64,000 nt of DNA from Dictyostelium discoideum (taxonomy: Eukaryota). Position numbers and translations under genes: made by a program. Of this stretch, positions 1 through 12,594 are shown piece by piece (position 1 is the stretch's first letter; each line of letters begins with the position of its first letter). The notes under the pieces were generated by a model that was given only the letters and a program-made list of their open reading frames with translations, made no database searches and had not been told where the DNA came from. The stretch lies in NCBI GenBank assembly GCA_000004695.1, contig CM000153.2:4704001-4768000 (forward strand). The letters run 5' to 3'.

Positions 1-67
1 TCATTTAAATTCTTTCTTTCAACTTTCTTTTTCTTTAATACAATTCTTTTTTTAATAACTCCACCAC

Positions 68-110
<43 letters not shown>

Positions 111-247
111 TTTATTATTTGATGTTGATAAAGTTGAATTTAAGGAACAAGTTGTATCTATACCCAATTGACCACGACTATTTGAACCCCATGAATAAAT
201 ATTTCCATTATTATCACATGCTAAACTATGTGCCCATCCTCCTGAAC
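1..247 (-). CDS. RCC1-repeat protein, 3' portion only. The gene runs off the left edge of the window and its 5' exon or exons are unresolved.
   Basis: The minus-strand frame is open from about 353 down to base 1. The translation ...KNCSGGWAHSLACDNNGNIYSWGSNSRGQLGIDTTCSLNSTLSTSNNKNNNN...SGGVIKKRIVLKKKKVERKNLN contains a canonical RCC1 blade motif (G-x-HS-x-A ... SWG-x-N-x-x-GQLG). The plus strand has stops here. An intron-like AT tract ending ...aaaattgttcag lies immediately 5' of the repeat, around plus 248-290. Confidence 0.45.
61..112. repeat. (ATT)17 microsatellite inside the RCC1-protein CDS, encoding poly-Asn on the minus strand.
   Basis: attattatt... run. Confidence 0.9.
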
Positions 248-288
248 AATTTTTTATTTTAATTGAGTTTATTTTAAAGTAATTTAAT

Positions 289-290
<2 letters not shown>

Positions 291-353
<63 letters not shown>
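291..353. repeat. (TGT)21 microsatellite, which is (ACA)n or (AAC)n on the minus strand.
   Basis: Perfect tgttgttgtt... It lies between the transporter gene's 3' end and the RCC1-repeat coding segment. Confidence 0.9.
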
Positions 354-354
<1 letters not shown>

Positions 355-483
355 CATTTGAAAATAAATAAATTAATTAAATAAATAAATAAATAAATAT
401 ATTATTTATTATTTTATTATTATTATTATTATTTTTTTTTTTACTATTACACAGAGTCTTGTATACAAATTATTTAAAATTTA

Positions 484-749
484 TTATAAAGATTCATTTG
501 GCTTTTCTTCAAATGCCGAGTTTTCGTCATTTGAAGTAATACCTTTTTTAGGTTGTAGTTTCTCTTGTTTCTTTTTTATTGATTGTAATAAGGCCTCTTC
601 ACCTTGAATAATTGCATAATTAATTTCACAAATCTTATCATGATTATAATTCTTCCAACGTGTATGGAAAAATTTCTGATGGAATCGGTAAACATTCATA
701 TGATCTTTGAAATTAATAAATGCATAACCACGACTTACTTTTGTCTATT

Positions 750-786
<37 letters not shown>

Positions 787-1221
787 ATTAATAAAATAGG
801 ATTATAATTAAAAAATGTGTTAAGAAGAAAAACTTACATGAGGATCTAATGGCATATTTAAAAAATCATAAGTATCTTTAAACTCTTCATCAATAAGGGC
901 AGTAAGATTTTGTTGAGTTAATCTATTTGGAATATTTCTAATCATTAAAGATGTTCTTGTATCAACTCCACTAATTATATTCTCTGGAATTAAAATACAA
1001 GTTGGATCTACAGGTTCTTTTGGTTCCTTTGGTTCTTTTAATTCTTTCTTTCCTTTGGAATTGGTTGAATTTCTTAATGTTCCATTGTTTTGATTCTTTT
1101 GTTGTGCCTTTTGCTGTTGAATCTCTGATTCCAATTCTTTTCTTCTTCTTTCAAGTTGTTCAAGTTCTTGTTCATTTTCAAGTATACTAACTTCATAAGC
1201 TGTTTGATTATATTGATGTTT

Positions 1222-1265
<44 letters not shown>

Positions 1266-1266
1266 G

Positions 1267-1308
<42 letters not shown>

Positions 1309-1390
1309 TATACTATTATTCATATTATTATTATTATTATTAATATTTGAACTATTATTGTTATTATTATTATTATTATTATTATTAGTA

Positions 1391-1467
<77 letters not shown>

Positions 1468-1747
1468 GTTATCATTATTATTATTATCTAATATAGAACT
1501 ATATTGTGATTCTGCAAATAAATTAAGAGATGAATTTGTTGGTGAATTATTGTTACTATAATTTAATAGATTTGGAGTATTACAACCACTGTTATTATTA
1601 CTATTATTATTACTATTATTATTACTATTATTATTACTATTATTCTTATTGCTATAAACATATGAAGAGTAAGAAAAACTATTTCTAAAATTATTATTAT
1701 TATTATCATTATTATTATTATTATTTATATTATCATTGTTATTATTA

Positions 1748-1829
<82 letters not shown>

Positions 1830-4242
1830 TTATATTATTTAATTGATTATAACTACGATTTAAAAATAAATTTGTAGTTTTAATTTTATTAACAGCATCA
1901 TTTGTTGAAGAAAAGAAAGAATCAGGACCAATTAAATCAATGAAACCAGCACGAATAAAATTTTTCTTATGAGAATCACGTAATTTAACAAAACAAACTT
2001 GAATCATTCTTTTTTTATATTGAGATACCATTTCGTATAGGATTTGAATTGAAGAAGCATCGATTACAGGTATATTACGCATATCGAAAACTATACCATA
2101 TAAAGAGGATCTTTGATTAATTGGTAAATTTAACATTTCTGAAGGATGAGCTAATGCACTACCAATATTTTCAATTCTAAATAGGATTTCTTTAACTTGA
2201 CCGATATTTGCAAAATAAAGGGATTCTTCAAATCTAATGACCAAAACACCATCAACTTGTTGAGCCTCTGGGAAAATAATGATATCTTTAAATTTCGAAG
2301 TTGGAGCATCACCAGGTAATTTACCCAACACAGTGAAATGTGGTGCAGAAGATTGTCTAATAACCAATAGAATCGAAGCACCAATACTAACGACTAAACC
2401 AACCTCGACACTGAAAATAAAGGTACAAACAAAGGTGGCAGAGAATAATAGTAAATCTTTCCAAGCCCTTAGCTTCCAAAGGAAAATAATATCATGAACT
2501 TCAAATAAACCCAATGCGGCCACGAAAATGATAGAGCTCATAATTACTCTTGGTAAATATTGGAAAATTGGCATTAAAAACAATAGGGTGAATAATACTA
2601 CAATAAAAGTGACAGCACCAGCCAATTGAGTTTTTGCACCAGCTTTATCATTTACAGCGGATCTTGTCATTGATGCATAGATTGGATATGCTAAAAATAT
2701 TGAACCAAATATATTACTTGCACCAATTGCCACCAATTCTCTATTTGTTGAAACTTGATAATTATGTTTGGTTGCGAAATTCTTACTAACCGCCATTGAC
2801 TCAACGAAACCCACAATACTAATGAACAAAGCTGGACCAATCAATTGATTGACCATATCCCATCTATTTAATTTTGGTAATGTTGGTATTGGGAAACTTG
2901 TAGAATAATAACCCAACACAGCAATGCCTTTCTCTTTTAAATGAAAGCCAGCTGAAACTGAAATCCCCACCACTACCACCACCAAAATTGAAGGTATAAA
3001 AAAGATTATATGATGTATTATTTTAGTTCTAACCTCTGGACAACATCTCTTTTTAATTTGACCCATAATTAATAATGCTATAATTGAAACGACACTAATG
3101 ATCAATGATAGCTCATTGACTAAATCGAATTTCTTAAATATTAAAGGTATTTTACGCCAACCACTATCCGCAACTGATATGCCTAACAATGTATCCATTT
3201 GATCGAATAGAATTGTAAAAGCCACTGCATTAATGAAACCTCTAATCAAGGGACGTGATAAAACCTCTGAAAGGAACCCAAATCTAAGTAAACCTAAAAT
3301 CAATGAAATCACACCAACCAAAAATGCCAATATATTTGCAGATGCTATCATTTCATCAGTTGTAAGTGGTACATCAGCAGACTCACTTATCTCTTTCAAT
3401 GTTGTACCAACGATTAAACTAACCAATGCTTCAGGACCAACTGATAATTGTCTTGATGTGCCCAACACTGCATACATCAATAATGGCATTAAACCAGTGT
3501 ATAAACCATAGATTGGTGGTAATCCAACCAATAATGCATATGCTAAACTTTGTGGTACCAACATAATTGATGTTGTAACTCCTGCCGTTAAATCATTAAT
3601 TGCATTGGCTCTATAATCATATTTAGGTAACCATCCTAAAATTGGTATATAATATTTAACTTTATTCTTTAATCTTTTAATCTTTTCTTCTTTATTTTCA
3701 ACTTTTTTACCATAATTTTCTTCAAAATTTAAATCTAAATCTAAATTATTATTATTATTATTATTATTACTATTATTATTATTATTATTATTACTATTAC
3801 TATTAGCACTAATTAAAGAAGGTGAAACTATTGGTGATAATGATGGTGAAGATGAACTATCACTTTCAATATTACTATTATTTTGTAAATTCTTTTTATT
3901 TAATTTTGTTAAGAAACTACTAAATGTAAGTGGTGTTTCTTCAATTAATGGTCCTGATTTCAATGTACTATTGATTGCATCCATTGATTGACTTAATGGC
4001 ATACCATTATTATCAAGTAATATTGCATTGTTATTATTATTATTATTATTTTGTCTATTTCTTAAATGACCAGAAGAACTAATTGATAATGGTACACCAT
4101 TATACCTTCCATCTATTTCTATATTCTCTTCTCTTTGTTGTTCTTGTTGTTCTTGTGGTTGATAAGGTTGTTGTTGATTTGAAAGTAATGGTGATGATTC
4201 ATTCTTATCATTAGATGAACTCCAAAATTTCCAATTTACCAT
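484..4242 (-). CDS. SulP/SLC26-family anion (sulfate) transporter with a STAS domain, fused through a long Asn/Gln-rich linker to a C-terminal Mei2-type RNA-recognition motif (RRM_2, PF04059). Two exons: 4242..838 and 744..484.
   Basis: ATG at 4242. Exon 1 is the track ORF 820..4242. It shows SulP hallmarks (YYIPILGWLPKYDY..., LTAGVTTSIMLVPQSLAYALLVGLPPIYGLYTG, GPEALVSL) and a STAS domain (VLVIRFEESLYFANIGQVKEI ... IVFDMRNIPVIDASSIQIL). About 480 residues of poly-N/Q and a coiled coil follow. The RRM_2 start is then TSLMIRNIPNRLTQQNLTALIDEEFKDTYDFLNMPLDPH, ending on a GTAAGT donor (plus acttac 832-837). The intron is 837..745 and ends in tag. Exon 2 continues the RRM in phase (TKVSRGYAFINFKDHMNVYRFHQKFFHTRWKNYNHDKICEINYAIIQGEEAL...) to the stop at 484-486. 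Confidence 0.8.
745..837 (-). other. Intron, 93 nt, GTAAGT...TAG, splitting the Mei2-type RRM of the transporter gene.
   Basis: On the gene strand the donor is CAT|gtaagtttttcttc and the acceptor is aaaaaaaatag|ACAAAAGTAAGTCGTGGTTATGCA. Phase 0 is preserved and domain homology continues across the junction (YDFLNMPLDPH | TKVSRGYAFINF). Confidence 0.8.
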
Positions 4243-4288
4243 TTATTTATATATTAATTATTATAATTGAAAAAAATATTCCTATTAT

Positions 4289-4290
4289 AT

Positions 4291-4369
<79 letters not shown>

Positions 4370-4370
4370 T
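4289..4370. repeat. (ATTT)n tetranucleotide repeat, about 20 units, in the intergenic DNA 5' of the transporter gene.
   Basis: tatttatttattt... begins immediately upstream of the ATG at 4242. Confidence 0.9.
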
Positions 4371-4743
4371 TATTATATATTAATGAATTATTACAAAAAA
4401 AAAGTATTATATTTTATGTTTTAAAAAATTAAGAGAAATGGTGCGTTATTTTTTTCTAATTTATAGTTTTATTTTAAAATTTTCAAAAAAATAAAAAGCA
4501 AATGAAAATATGTTGTTTTCATCAAAAAAAAAAAAAATATAAAAATAAAATAAAAAAAAATAAAAAAAATAAAATAAAAAAAATTAAAAAATTCACCCAG
4601 GAAAGAAAAAAAAAAACAAAAAAAATAAAATAAAAATTAAAAACAAGAAATCAATTTAAAAATTCACTGAAACGACGCTTGAATAAAAAGTATTATTTTT
4701 TAATTATTTTAATTTTAATTTTATTTTTAATTATTATTTTTAT

Positions 4744-7700
4744 TTATTTAAATAAATGAGATTTCTTGGAAAGTTTTACAATACCAGTGATAACATCATC
4801 TTTAATACCAAAAGATTTCAAAACTGATCCACCAGTTGTAGAATTACATTTTGAAATGATAACCTCGAATGAAACTGTAGTAGAAGGTTTGAGGAGTTTA
4901 ACGAATATCTTGATAAGTTCTAAAATAAAGAATCTAAAGTTATCAGATAATTGACCTCCAAGAGTTGAATCGAATTTAATTAAAGAACTTCTTGAGACAC
5001 CCAATGCTAAAGAAACCTTTTTAACAGTTTCATAACTTGTTGGTGAATTTACAATCATCAACAAATCTGAATATAAAGTAACTATTTCTTTTTCAAATAA
5101 TTGTTGTTGTTTTTGTTTCATTATATCATTTGATTTATCTTCTTTTTTAGATTTTTTCTTTTTTTCTTTTTCCTCTTTTTCTGTTTCCAATGCCCAACTT
5201 TTTCCAATGATTGATGATGATGAGTTAAAGATATCTTCATTTTTGGATTTTGATAATTTTGATCTTGATCCATCTTTTGACAATGATAAAGAGGATGACG
5301 ATGAAGACGATGATGATAAATACTTTGGTGGTGGTGATACGTAATCTTCATTATCGTCAAATAAACCAAAACCACAATATTCTTCTTCATCAGACTCTTC
5401 TTGTTCTTTTTCTTTTCTTTCTTGTTGCTTTTGAGATTGTAGCTGTGGTTGTGGTTGTGACTTTGGTGGTGGTGGACAATAATCATCGTATTCGCCAAAT
5501 AATCCAAAACCACAATCCCCTTCTCCATCAGACTCTTCTTGTTCTTTTTGTGGTCCTGATTTTGGTTGTTGTGGTTGTATTTGTTTTGATTCATATAAGG
5601 ATTGAGACAATACCCTTTGTAATTGATAATCTTCTTCATCACCAAAAAGACCAAATCCCATGTCTTCATCTTCATCATATGATTCCTTTTTTTTAGGTAA
5701 CGATGTTGGCTTTGAAACTGTTGTTGTTGCTGCTGCTTTTGTTGTTGTTGTTGATGATGTTGGATAGTCACCAAAAAGATCAAAACCCATATCTTCATCA
5801 CCCCACTCTTCTTCTTCGTCTTTTGGTTGAGATTTGGCTGCTAAATAGGAAGCAGGAGTAGAAGAAGCTGTAACAAGAGAAGTAATAGCATTGGGTACAC
5901 CTCCAAAAGAGTATGAACTTCCACTACCGCCGCCACCACTTCCTCCTTTCTTTACTGGTTCGTCTGACCAAGCATCATCGTCGTCGTCGTCTTCGTCATT
6001 TTCAATACAATCAATAGCTACTCTTCTACGACTTAGAGAATTTATTAATTGTGCAGAAAGATTATCAATAGTTTTGGCTTCTTCTTTTAATTTCTCTGGA
6101 ACTGCTTTTAATGAATATCCTCGTTTTATTGAATTCAAAAGAGAACCTTCATCACTTTTCAAAGAGTTTGCCTCTATCGAATTATTTTTTGAAGTTGATG
6201 ATGATGGTGGTGGTGGTGGTGGTGGACCAGATGATGATGGTTGTGGTGGTAAAGTAGTTCGTTTAAACCTTGGCATTCCATCTGATTTCTTTGAAATATT
6301 TCTTTCTTCTTGTAGATTTTCTTTTTCAGGACTATAACCAATATGAGCCGAAGATCTTCTCATCATTCCTCCAAATACTTGTGGAGCTGGTGGTGCTGGA
6401 CTAAAGACATTAGTGGATACACTTGGTCTTGGAGCATTTGGCAATGGTGGTGGTGTTGGTGTTGGTGTTGGTGTTGGAGTTGATGAGAAAGAAACTGTAC
6501 TCATTCTGGAATATCCAGCAACCATTGGTTTACTTGGTAAATTTATTTCAGAGAGGGTACTTTCTTCTTTGGCTTTAGATTTTGAAAATGATGGTGATGA
6601 TGGGGAATATGATGTTAAAACTGGTAATTTGGATGGTTTTGTTGGTGCATAAGATGGTGATACTGGAGAATAGGATGGTATTGTTGGTGCATATAGTAGT
6701 GATGTTGGAGTATATGATGGTGATACTGGAGAATATGATTGCGAAGTGGAAGCATATAGTGGAGAAGTTGAATAAGATGGTGATGTTGGGGAATAAGATG
6801 GTGATGTTGGGGAATAGGATGGTGATGTTGGGGAATAGGATGGTGATGTTGGGGAATAGGATGGTGATGTTGGGATATAGAATGGTGATGTTGGGGAATA
6901 AGGTTGAGAAGCTTGGAAAAATAATGATGGTGGTGGTGCACCACGTCCAAGTGATGTTGATGGTGGTGGTGGTGGTTGTGGTGGTGGTGGAGCACCACGT
7001 CCAAAAGCGGTACCAATATTTCCTCCCCTTCCACCTCTTGATGATCCTATACTTCCACCTCTTGATGATCCTCCTCTACCTCTACTACTATTGTTTGAAC
7101 GAATATTTCCTTCAGGAGATGGAGATCTAGATCTAGTTACACATCTATATTTATCAATTGATATTCCTCTTAAACTTACTTCACCTCTACTACTATTGTT
7201 TGAACGAATATTTCCTTCAGGAGATGGAGATCTAGATCTAGTTACACATCTATATTTATCAAATGATATTCCTCTTAAACTTACTTCATTACTAAAACTA
7301 TCAGATTCACTATCACTTCCACTTTCACTTTGATTTTCACTAACTCCTCCTTCATAATCTATATCAGTATTATTATTATTTGATACAATTTGATTAACAA
7401 CAATTGGTTTATAAGTTGTTGTTGCTTTTTTAATACCAAGTTTTTTAGGAGTTATTGACCATTGTTTAGAAGAAATAGTTGATTCAATTTGTGGTTCATC
7501 TTTTGGTTCATTATCAACATTATTTTCAGGTTGATGTTGATGACGTTGATCAAGGTTAAATTCATTAATTTCTTGTTCATCTTCAATAAATTGTAAACAT
7601 TCAGTTGTAGAATCACGAATTAATTGAAGTAAAAGTGTTGTATCTTTATAAGAATCTTCAGATAAGGTATCCAATTCAGAGATTGCTTTGTCAAATGTAT

Positions 7701-10432
7701 TCTTTGAAATTTGAATTGATTTTTCAAAATCACCATTCTCTTTATAATAGTTTGCAGATAATAATGATAATTGTAATAAAATCGGATTGGTTGGTGATAA
7801 TGAATTTTCTGAACGTTGTAAAGCAGACTTTAAAGTTGATTCAAACTTTTCACACCATTGTTTCTTTGAATATTTATTATCATCACAATTTAATAAACTT
7901 TTATAAACTGTACATTGATTATTCATTAAACTAATAATTGCCTCTTCATTATTTGAATGATTTGTTGATGATTCTAATAATCTTAATAAACCTTTACCTT
8001 GATAAATTATATCCTCTTTTAATTTCTTTTTCTCTCTTAATAATTTACTTGGTGTTGTTGGTGTAGTAGTAGTTGTTGTTGTTGAATCATCATTAATTGA
8101 TAATTTATCAACTCTTTTTGAAATTAAATTATTAATTGTATCTGAAAGTAAATTTAATTCTTTCATTGAAAATTCACCAAATGTATCTGAAATTTGATGA
8201 AATACATTAATTGTATCAGAGAACTTGCTATTTGAATGATATTGTTCAATTAATTTGGATAATTGATCACGTTTATTCAATAGAATTGGATCATTTGGAT
8301 CTTGATCAATACCTTGAGATTTATCTTCCCATGCAATGTATGGTAGAGAATCAACAATAGTTTGAGAGATAATCGATTGAATTGGTGGTAATTTTGAGAA
8401 TGTTTCATGTTTTTCCCTCTTTTCAACTGCAACAAAACTTGTGAATGGTGTTACAATCGAGTATTTAATGGATAGGTCGATGACATCATTCTTTTTCTTT
8501 AATTTAATTAAATCATGTTCATGTTTATTTTGACTATAGGTACCATCTTGATATTCTCTAATCATTGAACGAGCAGCTAAACGATGAATTAAATTACCCT
8601 TTATGAAACCAATCTCTGGTGTATGAACAACGTTGGTGATTAAACCACCACCAGGTGCTTGGCAAATCAATGTTGCACGAGTACAAATACCAGAGAAAGC
8701 ATACATAACTTGACGTTCTTTCTTAAATATTGAAGTTATAGTAGCAGGTGATTGAACTATGGAATTGGTATCACTTGAATCGAATTTCACTGAAATATTC
8801 GACATTGCGGGTTGAGTTAACCGTTGAAGTTGATCAATGATTTTCTTTGGATTTGGACGTTTATTTGTTTGAATAAACTCTGGATAACCACCACCTAAAC
8901 GGCAAATACTCTTTACGAAATGTCTACTACAATGCTCACCAATACCAAATGCAAACATTCTACAATAGGGTGATGCTTTTTTAACCAACATTTGAACCAA
9001 TTCTTCATTGGCTACATTACCATCTGTGAATAGTAAAATATTATGTGGATTGGTTGGTTTAGCTTTCTCTGCCAACAAATAAAGTGATTGTAATGGTTGA
9101 TGTAATAATGTACCACCATAGGATGTTTTTAAATGATTGATATGGCTCCAAGCAATTTGTAAATTTGATTCAGTCGGTGGTACACCAATACCGAAAAGCC
9201 AGTCAAAGGTATCACCAAAACAAACCACATCGAATAACACCTTTTGCATACCACGTAAATTTGAAATAGTGATACGAACTGCACGTAATAAATCCTCAAA
9301 TGCATCACCAGCCATCGAAGATGATAAATCAATTAATAAAGTAACCATAGTATGGCTATCCTTCATAGTATTATCAATATCCAATTTTGGATAAAATGCC
9401 AACATACTTGCATGATGACCTTTCTCATCAACCTCAACCCACATTCTTGGTGAATAAGGCTCCTCCAAACCAATCAATAATTGGAAATTCTTATCTAAAT
9501 ATTGATTATCTTGATTATTTAATTCAATGGTTGCTTTTGTATGAGTACGTTTTATACGAACGTCATGAGTTGGTGAAATTAATTTTACAATATTATAAGG
9601 CATTTCAATACCGACCGAAATGGATAAATCAGATTGTTTTTGTGCCAATTCTGTCACTTGAACAGTTGATGTTACCGATTGAGTATTACTACTTGAGGAT
9701 TGCAATCTTTGCTTTGGTGTGATTGAACGTGGTAATACAAAACTAATATCTAAACCATCGATTGATAGCTCAGTAACATAAACTATCTTAATTAAAACAT
9801 CACAATTTGGTGGTAAATTACCAACTGAAACTGTGAAAACATCAGGTTTATCCTCATCCATTAAATATGCACCATGACCAGCTGCAACTGCTTCACGATA
9901 CTCTCTTTGTGCTTTCTCCTTCTCTTTACATTCACCAATTATATGTTTACCATTTACATAAGCTTCGAAACCACAAACTGCTCCCATTTCATCCAATGGA
10001 AAAACATACTTTGCTTCAATCATATTCTTTGAATTATTTTGATAATGTTGATAAATTGTAACTTCACCAATTAAATCTAAAATTTTACCTTTAACATGAA
10101 CAGATTTTAATGGTATAGCATTATCACCACCACCATTCTTTGAAATTAAACCAATTTCTTGATTATCATCATCATCATTACTATCATCAATTAATGATTT
10201 TTGAGGTAGTGAATTTGGAACTTTCTCAGATTCAATAGTTGGTTTAACTGATTCTTTTGAAATTTCAAGTAATTTATCATTATTTGATGATAATGATGAT
10301 TTTAATATTGGTGGTATTGTTAATGAATTTAAATCATCAAATTCAATTAGGTATTGAATTTTTTGTTGTTTTGAATCATAAATTACAATTTCATCATCAA
10401 TAAAATCAGATTGTTTAACTGTATTATTTGAC

Positions 10433-10466
<34 letters not shown>

Positions 10467-12594
10467 CAACACCTTGAACACTATCAAAACCTTTTGGTGG
10501 TTTTGATAATTGAGTTTGATGAGTTGTATATTTTTTAATTTGACCTAATGCAACTGAACAAATAAACATATACTTTGAAAGTGTTTTTGTTGATGCTTTA
10601 CAATATTGAATTGAAGTGGATGGTTTAACACCAAAATAAATACCACTACCCAAATAACCAATATCTCTTCTACCAGCACCAATTGATGTTGATACATTTG
10701 GTGTTAATAAACCTCTACTTAGTATACCCAATATATTCGATGGATTACTACCATGATAAAGTGTTTTCAAATTACCAACTTCAAAATTATAATTATCTTC
10801 TTCTTTTCTTATAATTTTAAAAATATTTTTAATTTTTATTAAATTATTATTATTATTATTATTATCTATACAATTTTCATTATTATTATTATTATCATTA
10901 CCATTACTTTTTTTAATTGATTGTTGTGGTTGTGTTAAACCTTCAATTTTTGTACCACCTTTAATTTGATCAGTTATACGTTTAAAATCTTTTGAAGATT
11001 TATCTAATTGATTAATTTGACAACGTAATGCACGATATTTTGCCATTTCACCACTACTTGCAGAAGTTAATGTTTTTGAAACACCACTTAATGATTCACC
11101 AACTGATAAAATATCTTTCATTAATTGTACAGATTCTTGAATATCATTTAATAGTTCATATGAATTATTAAATTTACCACCTGGTGGTTTCAATTGTGGT
11201 AATGATCTAAAGATTTCATCGATTAAATCGGTTGATTCTTTACTATCAATTTTACCACCATTACCTCTTAACACTGTTGATAATTGAAATAATGATAATT
11301 CAGCTTTATCAACTTGCATTAATGTAATGTCACCCATTGATGTTTTAATTGAACCTTCAGGTGAAAGGTGAAGTTTACTACCATTACCAAACTTATTACC
11401 CAATGTTGATATAGCTTCATCATATAATATTTTAATTAATTCATGAATTGGTTTTGGAATTTCATTATTAATGTTATTACTATCATCAATATTATTGGTG
11501 GTGGTTATTGTTGTATCATCAAATAATTTATTATAACATAATTCTTGTAATTTATTAGAACCAATTAATGTTGAACCTAATTGAAATTTTGAATATTTTT
11601 TATTTATTAAATGATCTTTAAATATCTCATTATATTGGTCCAATGAATTCTCCAAATTTGTAAATGGTATCCATTCTTTAACTGAATCATTTATTTTATT
11701 TGCATCTAAACTACCATAATTTAAAAATACTCTATAATATGATTGTGTTTGGTCACCACTACCACCACTATTATCACTATTACCAGTTTTAATTAATTCT
11801 AAAATTTTACCTGCAACATGTAATTCCAAACAAATAAAACTTTCAGCTTTTGGTGATATTAAAACATTATGTTTAACAACATGATATTTAGATTCTGTTG
11901 GAAATTTATCGTTTTCAACTTTATTATTATATTTAATTCTTTCATATTGCTGTTGTTGCTGCTCACCATTAGTTGATGATGATGATGATGATGATGGATC
12001 TTCTAATAAATTTGAAAAATCCAATGATTTATAATGATATTCTTTAATATTATATAATGAAACTAATGAATATTCATTTGGTGATAATAAATTACCATTT
12101 GAAATTGAATCTTCTAAATATCTTTTTGACACAATTGGAATATTCAATTTAATTGCCTTTTTAATATTGGATGATAAAGTTTCTAAATTTATATTCTTTT
12201 TTTCTTCTTCATCTTGATAACTATTATTATTATTATTCTTTTCATCAACTTTTATTAAATCATTAAAATCACCACTAAAAATATAATAGTTAATCTAAAA
12301 ATAATTTTTATATAAAAAAAAAATAAAAATAAAAAAATAAAAATAAAATTAAATGTTTCACAAATAATTATTATATGTGTGTTAATAGTTGAATGATTTA
12401 AATTTTTTTTTTTTTTAATTTTTTTAAATAAATAATAAAAATAACAAACTTACTTTTTGATTTAAAATCATTGAGACATTACCACCATGTGATTCTACAT
12501 ATGATTGTAAAACCTTTTTTGATTTTAAGCCACTATTTCCACAATCCAAATAAAATGTAAGATTATTTAACACAGAGTTTTTATTTACAACCAT
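4744..12594 (-). CDS. Giant vault-PARP (PARP4)-like poly(ADP-ribose) polymerase with BRCT, PARP catalytic, VIT and vWA domains, a long C-terminal extension carrying RGG, CTD-like heptads and four P-stalk tail motifs, and a final ~100-aa C-terminal domain. Two exons: 12594..12454 and 12294..4744.
   Basis: Exon 1 is ATG 12594..12454, [47 protein letters not shown], which is BRCT-like. The donor is GTAAGT (plus acttac 12448-12453) and the acceptor is tttttag at 12295. Exon 2 continues [15 protein letters not shown]... in phase into the track ORF 4744..12147, whose listed start is a TTG. The PARP signature is [19 protein letters not shown] ... GIYFG ... [11 protein letters not shown] ... [22 protein letters not shown] is [21 protein letters not shown]...[46 protein letters not shown]. 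vWA is [26 protein letters not shown]...[18 protein letters not shown]. Confidence 0.85.
7081..7290. repeat. Two tandem copies of a 105-bp unit inside the PARP CDS.
   Basis: The unit ctactactattgtttgaacgaatatttccttcaggagatggagatctagatctagttacacatctatatttatcaa(t/a)tgatattcctcttaaacttacttca occurs twice, at about 7081 and 7186. The two copies are nearly identical. They encode a duplicated 35-aa block, EVSLRGIS(F/I)[26 protein letters not shown]. Confidence 0.8.
12295..12453 (-). other. Intron, 159 nt, in the BRCT-coding 5' end of the PARP gene.
   Basis: GTAAGTTTGTTATTTTTATT ... TTATATTTTTAG. Both flanks are phase 0, and the BRCT-like sequence resumes as [10 protein letters not shown]. The unspliced reading hits an in-frame TAA within 30 nt. 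Confidence 0.7.

Follow-up and report, generated by a model that had tools for sequence, protein, structure and literature searches.

The topology of SLC26 transporters places their C terminus in the cytosol, and members of the wider SulP family occur fused to other domains, as in the bacterial SulP-carbonic anhydrase fusions. The C-terminal RNA recognition motif (RRM) of Mei2 also occurs by itself: plant MCT proteins are short and contain only this domain. In Schizosaccharomyces pombe Mei2, the third RRM (RRM3) contacts RNA through N582, Y629, R631, F634, F644, S677, Y678, N680, I681 and K690 (PMC9486875). F644 and I681 form a pocket, and the double mutant loses RNA binding, while alanine or charge-reversal mutants of R631, N680 and K690 bind with reduced affinity (PMC9486875). 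Here we describe a Dictyostelium discoideum gene in which an SLC26/SulP transporter and a Mei2-type RRM are encoded together. It lies on the minus strand, between positions 484 and 4242 of a 64,000-nucleotide (nt) stretch of contig CM000153.2 (positions 4,704,001 to 4,768,000 of the forward strand; assembly GCA_000004695.1). This whole stretch is called the window below, and coordinates refer to it. We consider it likely that the gene is the product of a fusion event in the D. discoideum lineage, and that it encodes an SLC26 transporter with a folded, probably RNA-binding Mei2-type RRM attached to its cytosolic tail via a flexible spacer.

The gene structure was deduced from the list of open reading frames (ORFs), the sequence and the spliced translation. 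A 1,140-codon ORF spans positions 820 to 4242 (minus strand) with its ATG at 4242. Coding exon 1 (838 to 4242; start codon 4242 to 4240) provides residues 1 to 1135, which comprise an N-terminal tail, the transporter, the STAS domain, a linker and residues 1 to 40 of the RRM_2 domain. It is followed by a 93-nt phase 0 intron (745 to 837; GTAAGT...AAATAG) that is 90% A+T and contains in-frame stops. Coding exon 2 (484 to 744) encodes residues 1136 to 1221, i.e., the other half of RRM_2 followed by a short acidic/basic tail, and ends with the TAA stop codon at 486 to 484. The splice sites are cat/GTAAGT at 837 and AAATAG/aca at 745. After removal of the intron, YDFLNMPLDPH is continued by TKVSRGYAFINF, in a frame that remains open up to the TAA. 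The spliced product has 1,221 residues and, by sequence, a mass of 137.6 kDa. A donor/acceptor scan of the whole gene, including the linker, for sites with an A+T-rich acceptor downstream revealed no second plausible intron. An AATAAA hexamer (480 to 485, minus strand) overlaps the stop codon and is likely to serve as the poly(A) signal of the gene.

These results agree with an earlier, sequence-only reading of this DNA, which had described the 1,140-codon ORF together with a spliced 87-codon exon (86 codons and the stop, by our count). They also agree with its view that the 93-nt intron is canonical and that domain homology continues across the junction. Indeed, the RRM_2 match runs ungapped over PLDPH/TKVSRGYAF.

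The Pfam scan that had been proposed along with that reading (PF00916, PF01740 and PF04059) detected all three domains in the 1,221-residue protein, each above its curated cut-off. The Sulfate_transp membrane domain (PF00916; 2446 to 3597, minus strand; residues 216 to 599) was matched with an E value of 3.2e-99 and 332.7 bits (cut-off, 23.2), over profile positions 3 to 376 of 380. The STAS domain (PF01740; 1894 to 2271, minus strand; residues 658 to 783), which was also aligned with four dictyostelid orthologues, was matched with an E value of 2.8e-14 and 53.2 bits (cut-off, 22.6), over profile positions 2 to 106 of 106. When a 622-residue query with the transporter core was compared with the solved structures of prestin, AtSULTR4;1 and SLC26A6/A9, E values ranged from 1e-103 to 1e-65. 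Prestin (7v73) was matched with 2e-103, and AtSULTR4;1 (7lhv) with 3e-97 across query residues 10 to 606. Furthermore, the sequence alignment was collinear with the solved 14-transmembrane-segment SLC26 structures throughout the core. The domain matches and this collinearity bear out the claim that the gene encodes a complete SLC26/SulP transporter with its STAS domain. By homology to solved SLC26 proteins, whose topology is established, a cytosolic C-terminal tail and, probably, a dimeric state are expected.

The Mei2-type RRM (RRM_2, PF04059; 577 to 957, minus strand; residues 1096 to 1191) is split by the intron. It was matched with an E value of 2e-25 and 89 to 95 bits (cut-off, 25), over profile positions 1 to 96 of 97. 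Its RNP2 and RNP1 motifs read LMIRNIP and RGYAFINF, respectively. The alignment of the C-terminal 156 residues with S. pombe Mei2 RRM3 was gapless over 106 residues, junction included (E value, 2e-25). When the C-terminal 214 residues were modeled with AlphaFold2, the RRM received a pLDDT (predicted local distance difference test) score above 90. Foldseek superimposed this tail model on the Mei2 RRM3 structures 6yyl, 6yym and 7eiu within 1.0 to 1.6 Å over 109 to 113 residues (1.0 to 1.2 Å over 110 residues for 6yyl and 6yym). Residue numbers in the fused protein correspond to those of Mei2 plus 500, with N582 lying outside the aligned stretch. Among the RNA-contact residues, F1144, I1181 and Y1178 are retained, and N1177 is a conservative change from Mei2 S677. 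We consider RNA binding by the fused RRM plausible, perhaps with a changed affinity or specificity.

The spacer between STAS and RRM_2 was measured as 312 residues (0.94 kb), shorter than the approximately 480 residues (1.4 kb) given in the sequence-only reading. It consists of 46% Asn and 9% Gln, with Asn runs of up to 27 residues. An Asn/Gln-rich low-complexity linker (1222 to 1893, minus strand; residues 784 to 1007) makes up its first part. Downstream of it, a charged α-helix of 40 residues is predicted (1090 to 1209, minus strand; residues 1012 to 1051), which forms an AlphaFold2 block with pLDDT values of 71 to 90. This helix, to which the coiled coil of the sequence-only reading corresponds, is rich in E, R, K and Q and may be a coiled coil or a single α-helix.

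When the linker was shuffled, the frame stayed open in none of 2,000 cases. The most repeat-rich 175 codons (residues 799 to 973; 1324 to 1848) contain no in-frame stop, and the other two sense frames of this stretch contain 5 and 118 stops. Its 55 codons for residues other than Asn and Gln have a G+C content of 0.24, 0.53 and 0.05 at the first, second and third codon positions, respectively. In two nearby stretches that are truly intergenic, the G+C content was flat at approximately 0.1, and every frame contained 9 to 21 stops per 500 nt. We conclude that the single ORF across the linker is real. Judged by the shuffling result and the codon periodicity, it is not a chance open frame. We infer that one mRNA and one protein are made from the whole ORF.

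In an exhaustive search, the best single-domain RRM_2 matches (P0144, P0145 and P0148) were Mei2-like proteins with two RRM_1 domains and one RRM_2. P0145 is the 1,149-residue Mei2-like protein of Cavenderia fasciculata. The intron that splits RRM_2 was compared between species. The junction reads PLDPH/TKVSRGYAF in D. discoideum, PMDPV/QKGNLGYAF in the Mei2-like gene of Acytostelium subglobosum and PIDPN/TKVNYGYAF in that of C. fasciculata, where the intron has 84 nt. In all three species, the intron is located at the identical codon boundary and in the same phase. Because the Acytostelium and Cavenderia Mei2-like genes share the intron position, the argument from the intron is stronger than it was in the sequence-only reading. 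Furthermore, the fused RRM contains a dictyostelid signature (LPNRLTQ, [ILM]DP and KV) that is absent from other RRM_2 proteins.

The similarity is confined to the end of the Mei2-like gene. When the C. fasciculata Mei2-like locus was compared with the window, just the two RRM_2 exons matched, and the homology to Mei2-like proteins starts only approximately 40 residues ahead of the RRM. No part of the 64-kb window matched RRM_1 of P0144, P0145 or P0148, the window contains no helicase either, and Pfam detected no separate RRM_1 upstream of RRM_2 in the 1,221-residue protein at an E value of ≤1. Judged by the shared intron position, the dictyostelid signature and the match to only two exons, the RRM module is the 3′ end of a Mei2-like gene, i.e., its two final exons, which reached this locus as DNA, by relocation or duplication. 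As the two N-terminal RRM_1 domains that characterize the Mei2-like family are absent, we do not class the fused protein as a member of that family but only as a carrier of its third RRM.

The top match of the first RRM_2 search was A. subglobosum P0001 (258 residues, a "partial" model). It was considered as a stand-alone RRM_2 ancestor and rejected, because the two RRM_1 domains of a canonical Mei2-like protein are encoded directly upstream, near the contig end (locus L005, 731 to 1321), where the DNA is matched by the RRM_1 regions of the Mei2-like proteins named above. The public P0001 model thus under-calls this A. subglobosum gene (L005, 731 to 2326; DF837626.1). In C. fasciculata (locus L086, 1 to 8534; GL883026.1), an AAA_11/AAA_12 helicase gene (SF1, Upf1-like) lies directly upstream of the Mei2-like gene. 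P0144 and P0148 combine a helicase and a Mei2-like protein in one model, which may represent a real fusion or merged neighboring genes.

The orthologous transporters of other dictyostelids were also analyzed. The orthologue of Tieghemostelium lacteum (P0018; 803 residues, 71% identity), which has the N terminus MVNWKFW in common with the D. discoideum protein, consists of SulP and STAS only. The same applies to P0019 of A. subglobosum (854 residues), P0021 of C. fasciculata and P0022 of Heterostelium album. In the alignment, the four orthologues terminate 40 to 80 residues past the conserved end of STAS, i.e., early in the linker region. In these species, tblastn detected no RRM_2 exon or gene in the 10 kb that follow the SulP orthologue (loci L001 to L004). 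Hence the fusion, which the sequence-only reading had suggested looking for in other Dictyostelia, is absent from the proteins and 10-kb flanks of four of them. A tblastx comparison of five related loci with the window revealed no common neighbors; the matches were to SulP or to the two RRM_2 exons only. T. lacteum is placed in the order of Dictyostelium, though in a different family, and Acytostelium, Cavenderia and Heterostelium belong to the Acytosteliales. Since the orthologues of T. lacteum and of the three Acytosteliales have no RRM_2, the fusion is most simply dated to the Dictyostelium lineage, at a time after it had separated from the Raperosteliaceae (Tieghemostelium).

The sequence-only reading had called the combination of a transporter with an RRM odd. 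Our search for further cases covered the best-scoring relatives of each domain; rarer cases are possible. Neither PF04059 nor another RRM was detected among the 120 best SulP relatives, and no SulP core was matched by phmmer among the 167 best RRM_2 relatives. Seven of the longest RRM_2 relatives contain RRM_1 and RRM_2 only, apart from an N-terminal helicase in two of the seven. Moreover, SulP was found in none of 80 metagenome loci with RRM_2 (436 kb). We found no published description of a Dictyostelium SLC26/STAS/RRM combination or of an RRM-bearing solute carrier. In line with the earlier remark, the SulP-RRM_2 architecture appears to be unique.

The data suggest the following scenario. 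An ancestral SLC26/SulP gene, conserved across the Dictyostelia, would have ended shortly after STAS. Its 3′ end would have gained the two final exons of a Mei2-like gene, together with the intron between them, and the RRM would have been joined in frame by the Asn/Gln-rich spacer with its one long charged helix. In the resulting protein, the flexible tail would hold the folded Mei2-type RRM near the membrane. With the F1144/I1181 pair kept, the RRM may still bind U-rich single-stranded RNA and bring RNA or ribonucleoprotein particles to the membrane in which the transporter resides.

Several observations weigh against this scenario or parts of it, and we considered them together with other explanations, which are not all mutually exclusive. 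The fused RRM is fast evolving: it is 45 to 48% identical to dictyostelid Mei2-like RRM3, whereas the RRM3 copies of C. fasciculata, P0144 and P0148 are mutually 73 to 76% identical. In addition to the conservative change at S677, five Mei2 contacts are altered (Y629 to N1129, R631 to P1131, F634 to P1134, N680 to I1180 and K690 to S1190), so that six of the ten contact positions are substituted. Three of these positions (R631, N680 and K690) are ones at which Mei2 mutants have a lower affinity (PMC9486875). The RRM could be a passenger, i.e., a translated Mei2-like remnant that is RNA inert and either drifts or is reused for protein binding (for example, to STAS or to a partner), and that four other dictyostelids lack the fusion would also be compatible with this. 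However, neither the ORF nor the two splice sites are damaged, the Pfam match is still full length, the fused RRM has kept RNP1, RNP2 and the F/I pocket for stacking, and its fold is predicted with the above-mentioned high pLDDT. Moreover, several of the altered contacts are the norm in the family, where Pro is common at the position of R631. The fused RRM departs from the family at 10 of 41 conserved positions, no more often than the copy of A. subglobosum, which does so at 11 of 42. We therefore regard a passenger RRM as doubtful, though as an alternative to be taken seriously.

A further point against the full-length fusion protein is M974 (1323 to 1321), the sole internal Met of the linker ahead of the RRM, from which a 29-kDa soluble RRM protein would be translated. 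The gene might then give rise to two products, with the RRM mainly expressed alone from M974 and/or the transporter mRNA polyadenylated early, and with the fusion being rare or absent. The 525 nt upstream of M974 (1324 to 1848) have a G+C content of 10 to 14%, the same as intergenic DNA, and short soluble RRM_2-only proteins of approximately 250 residues do exist, for example, in Paramecium. Furthermore, a sense-strand AATAAA is present at 1890, directly after STAS. However, there is no stop codon after STAS, and an early-ending transporter mRNA would be a non-stop message. No other sense-strand AATAAA was found between 1889 and 581, and the 525-nt stretch is free of in-frame stops and shows clear codon periodicity. 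M974 is also not an inherited start codon, because the homology to Mei2-like proteins begins so shortly before the RRM. Two separate products are in our view unlikely.

Finally, the exact 1,221- and 1,140-residue products and six sub-models were absent from the protein collection searched, and the protein searches returned no orthologue from the D. discoideum group; the collection may filter for length or low complexity. None of the retrieved proteins had an Asn run longer than 11 residues, and a search with the PARP4-like product of the neighboring gene (see below) returned nothing above 1,406 residues. Two other ORFs of the window match proteins of D. discoideum strain AX4 exactly (EAL64065.1/Q54LI8 and part of EAL64068.1/Q54LI1), which identifies the window as AX4 DNA. 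Despite having no RRM, three of the transporter orthologues (those of T. lacteum, C. fasciculata and H. album) bear the name "RNA recognition motif-containing protein RRM". Since a name of this kind on three RRM-less proteins is most simply explained by transfer, its source was probably a fused D. discoideum gene model that public annotation already contains. An assembly or sequencing artifact, in which a length error in (AAT)n places two adjacent genes falsely in frame, is highly improbable: Asn runs of up to 27 codons are error-prone to sequence and the exact protein was in no collection searched, but one indel cannot erase the stop of a separate transporter gene (none is in frame in 958 to 1893), several unique nonrepeat segments share one frame with coding periodicity, and the public D. 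discoideum model, to judge by the orthologue names, is fused as well.

With the lineage-specific fusion as the preferred explanation, a functional membrane-anchored RNA-binding transporter can be envisaged. In the dimer, two tethered RRMs would capture specific U-rich mRNAs or noncoding RNAs at the membrane, and the supply of anions (sulfate) or the conformation of STAS would thereby be coupled to the storage or translation of RNA nearby; in another version, the transporter would be gated by RNA binding. We consider such a function a long shot. Provided that the fusion is produced at full length and that its RRM binds RNA, the protein would represent a natural RNA-binding domain hard-wired to a solute carrier. 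It would also make it easy to ask by genetics, in a tractable organism, whether a membrane-tethered RRM has a regulatory use. The gene also provides a clean, datable case of exon capture, with two terminal Mei2-like exons and their intron grafted onto an unrelated gene via an Asn-rich spacer. As illustrated by this case, domain fusion may be facilitated by the low-complexity tracts of Dictyostelium. A narrow distribution (one lineage) and a functional role that is read from sequence limit the significance.

The surroundings of the gene were also inspected. A long (AAAT)n microsatellite (4265 to 4390) is located immediately upstream of its start codon, within an intergenic region of approximately 500 nt. 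The upstream neighbor (4744 to 12594, minus strand; exon 1, 12594 to 12454; exon 2, 12294 to 4744) encodes a PARP4 (vault-PARP)-like protein of approximately 2,563 residues. It contains PARP catalytic, VIT, vWA and 14-3-3-like (PF00244; E value, 9e-20) domains. Approximately 12 YSPTSPS heptads resembling those of the RNA polymerase II C-terminal domain are also present, as are four ribosomal P-stalk C-terminal motifs ([MC]GF[GD]LF in acidic context; PF00428; E value, 5e-12). This domain set is unusual for a PARP4. The search with this protein yielded no dictyostelid match, and the maximal length of the proteins returned suggests a length limit in the index. On the other side of the fused gene (1 to 357, minus strand), an ATG with an (AAC)n Asn run is present approximately 130 nt past the stop codon. 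After the Asn run and in a different frame, there is an RCC1-like repeat, GGWAHSLACDNNGNIYSWGSNSRGQLG. This suggests that the next gene, which runs off the window, starts very close to the stop of the fused gene and has an intron or a frame change.

Among known systems, the SLC26/SulP transporters with a C-terminal STAS domain are among the closest. The protein shares the full Sulfate_transp and STAS architecture with prestin (7v73), SULTR4;1 (7lhv), SLC26A6 (8opq) and SLC26A9 (6rtc), and its one-to-one orthologues are clear in four dictyostelids. Unlike these relatives, it adds 438 residues after STAS, which comprise the Asn/Gln linker, the helix and RRM_2. The RRM_2 is 42 to 43% identical to RRM3 of S. 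pombe Mei2 (6yyl, 6yym and 7eiu), with a close model fit, and the stacking pocket formed in Mei2 by F644 and I681 is retained as F1144 and I1181. With the dictyostelid Mei2-like genes it shares the intron position and the lineage signature. Unlike the Mei2-like proteins, the fused protein lacks the two N-terminal RRM_1 domains, is predicted to be attached to a membrane and has an RRM that evolves faster than the canonical copies. The 257-residue "Mei2-like C-terminal RNA recognition motif" proteins of Paramecium likewise contain the third Mei2 RRM only; these are small and soluble, whereas in D. discoideum the domain ends a polytopic transporter. Among SulP proteins, P0093 of Synchytrium endobioticum (1,064 residues) combines SulP and STAS with a RING finger (PF13639) and thus also has an appended cytosolic domain. 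In contrast to the other SulP fusions, the domain added in D. discoideum is of an RNA-binding type, without an obvious tie to anion chemistry.

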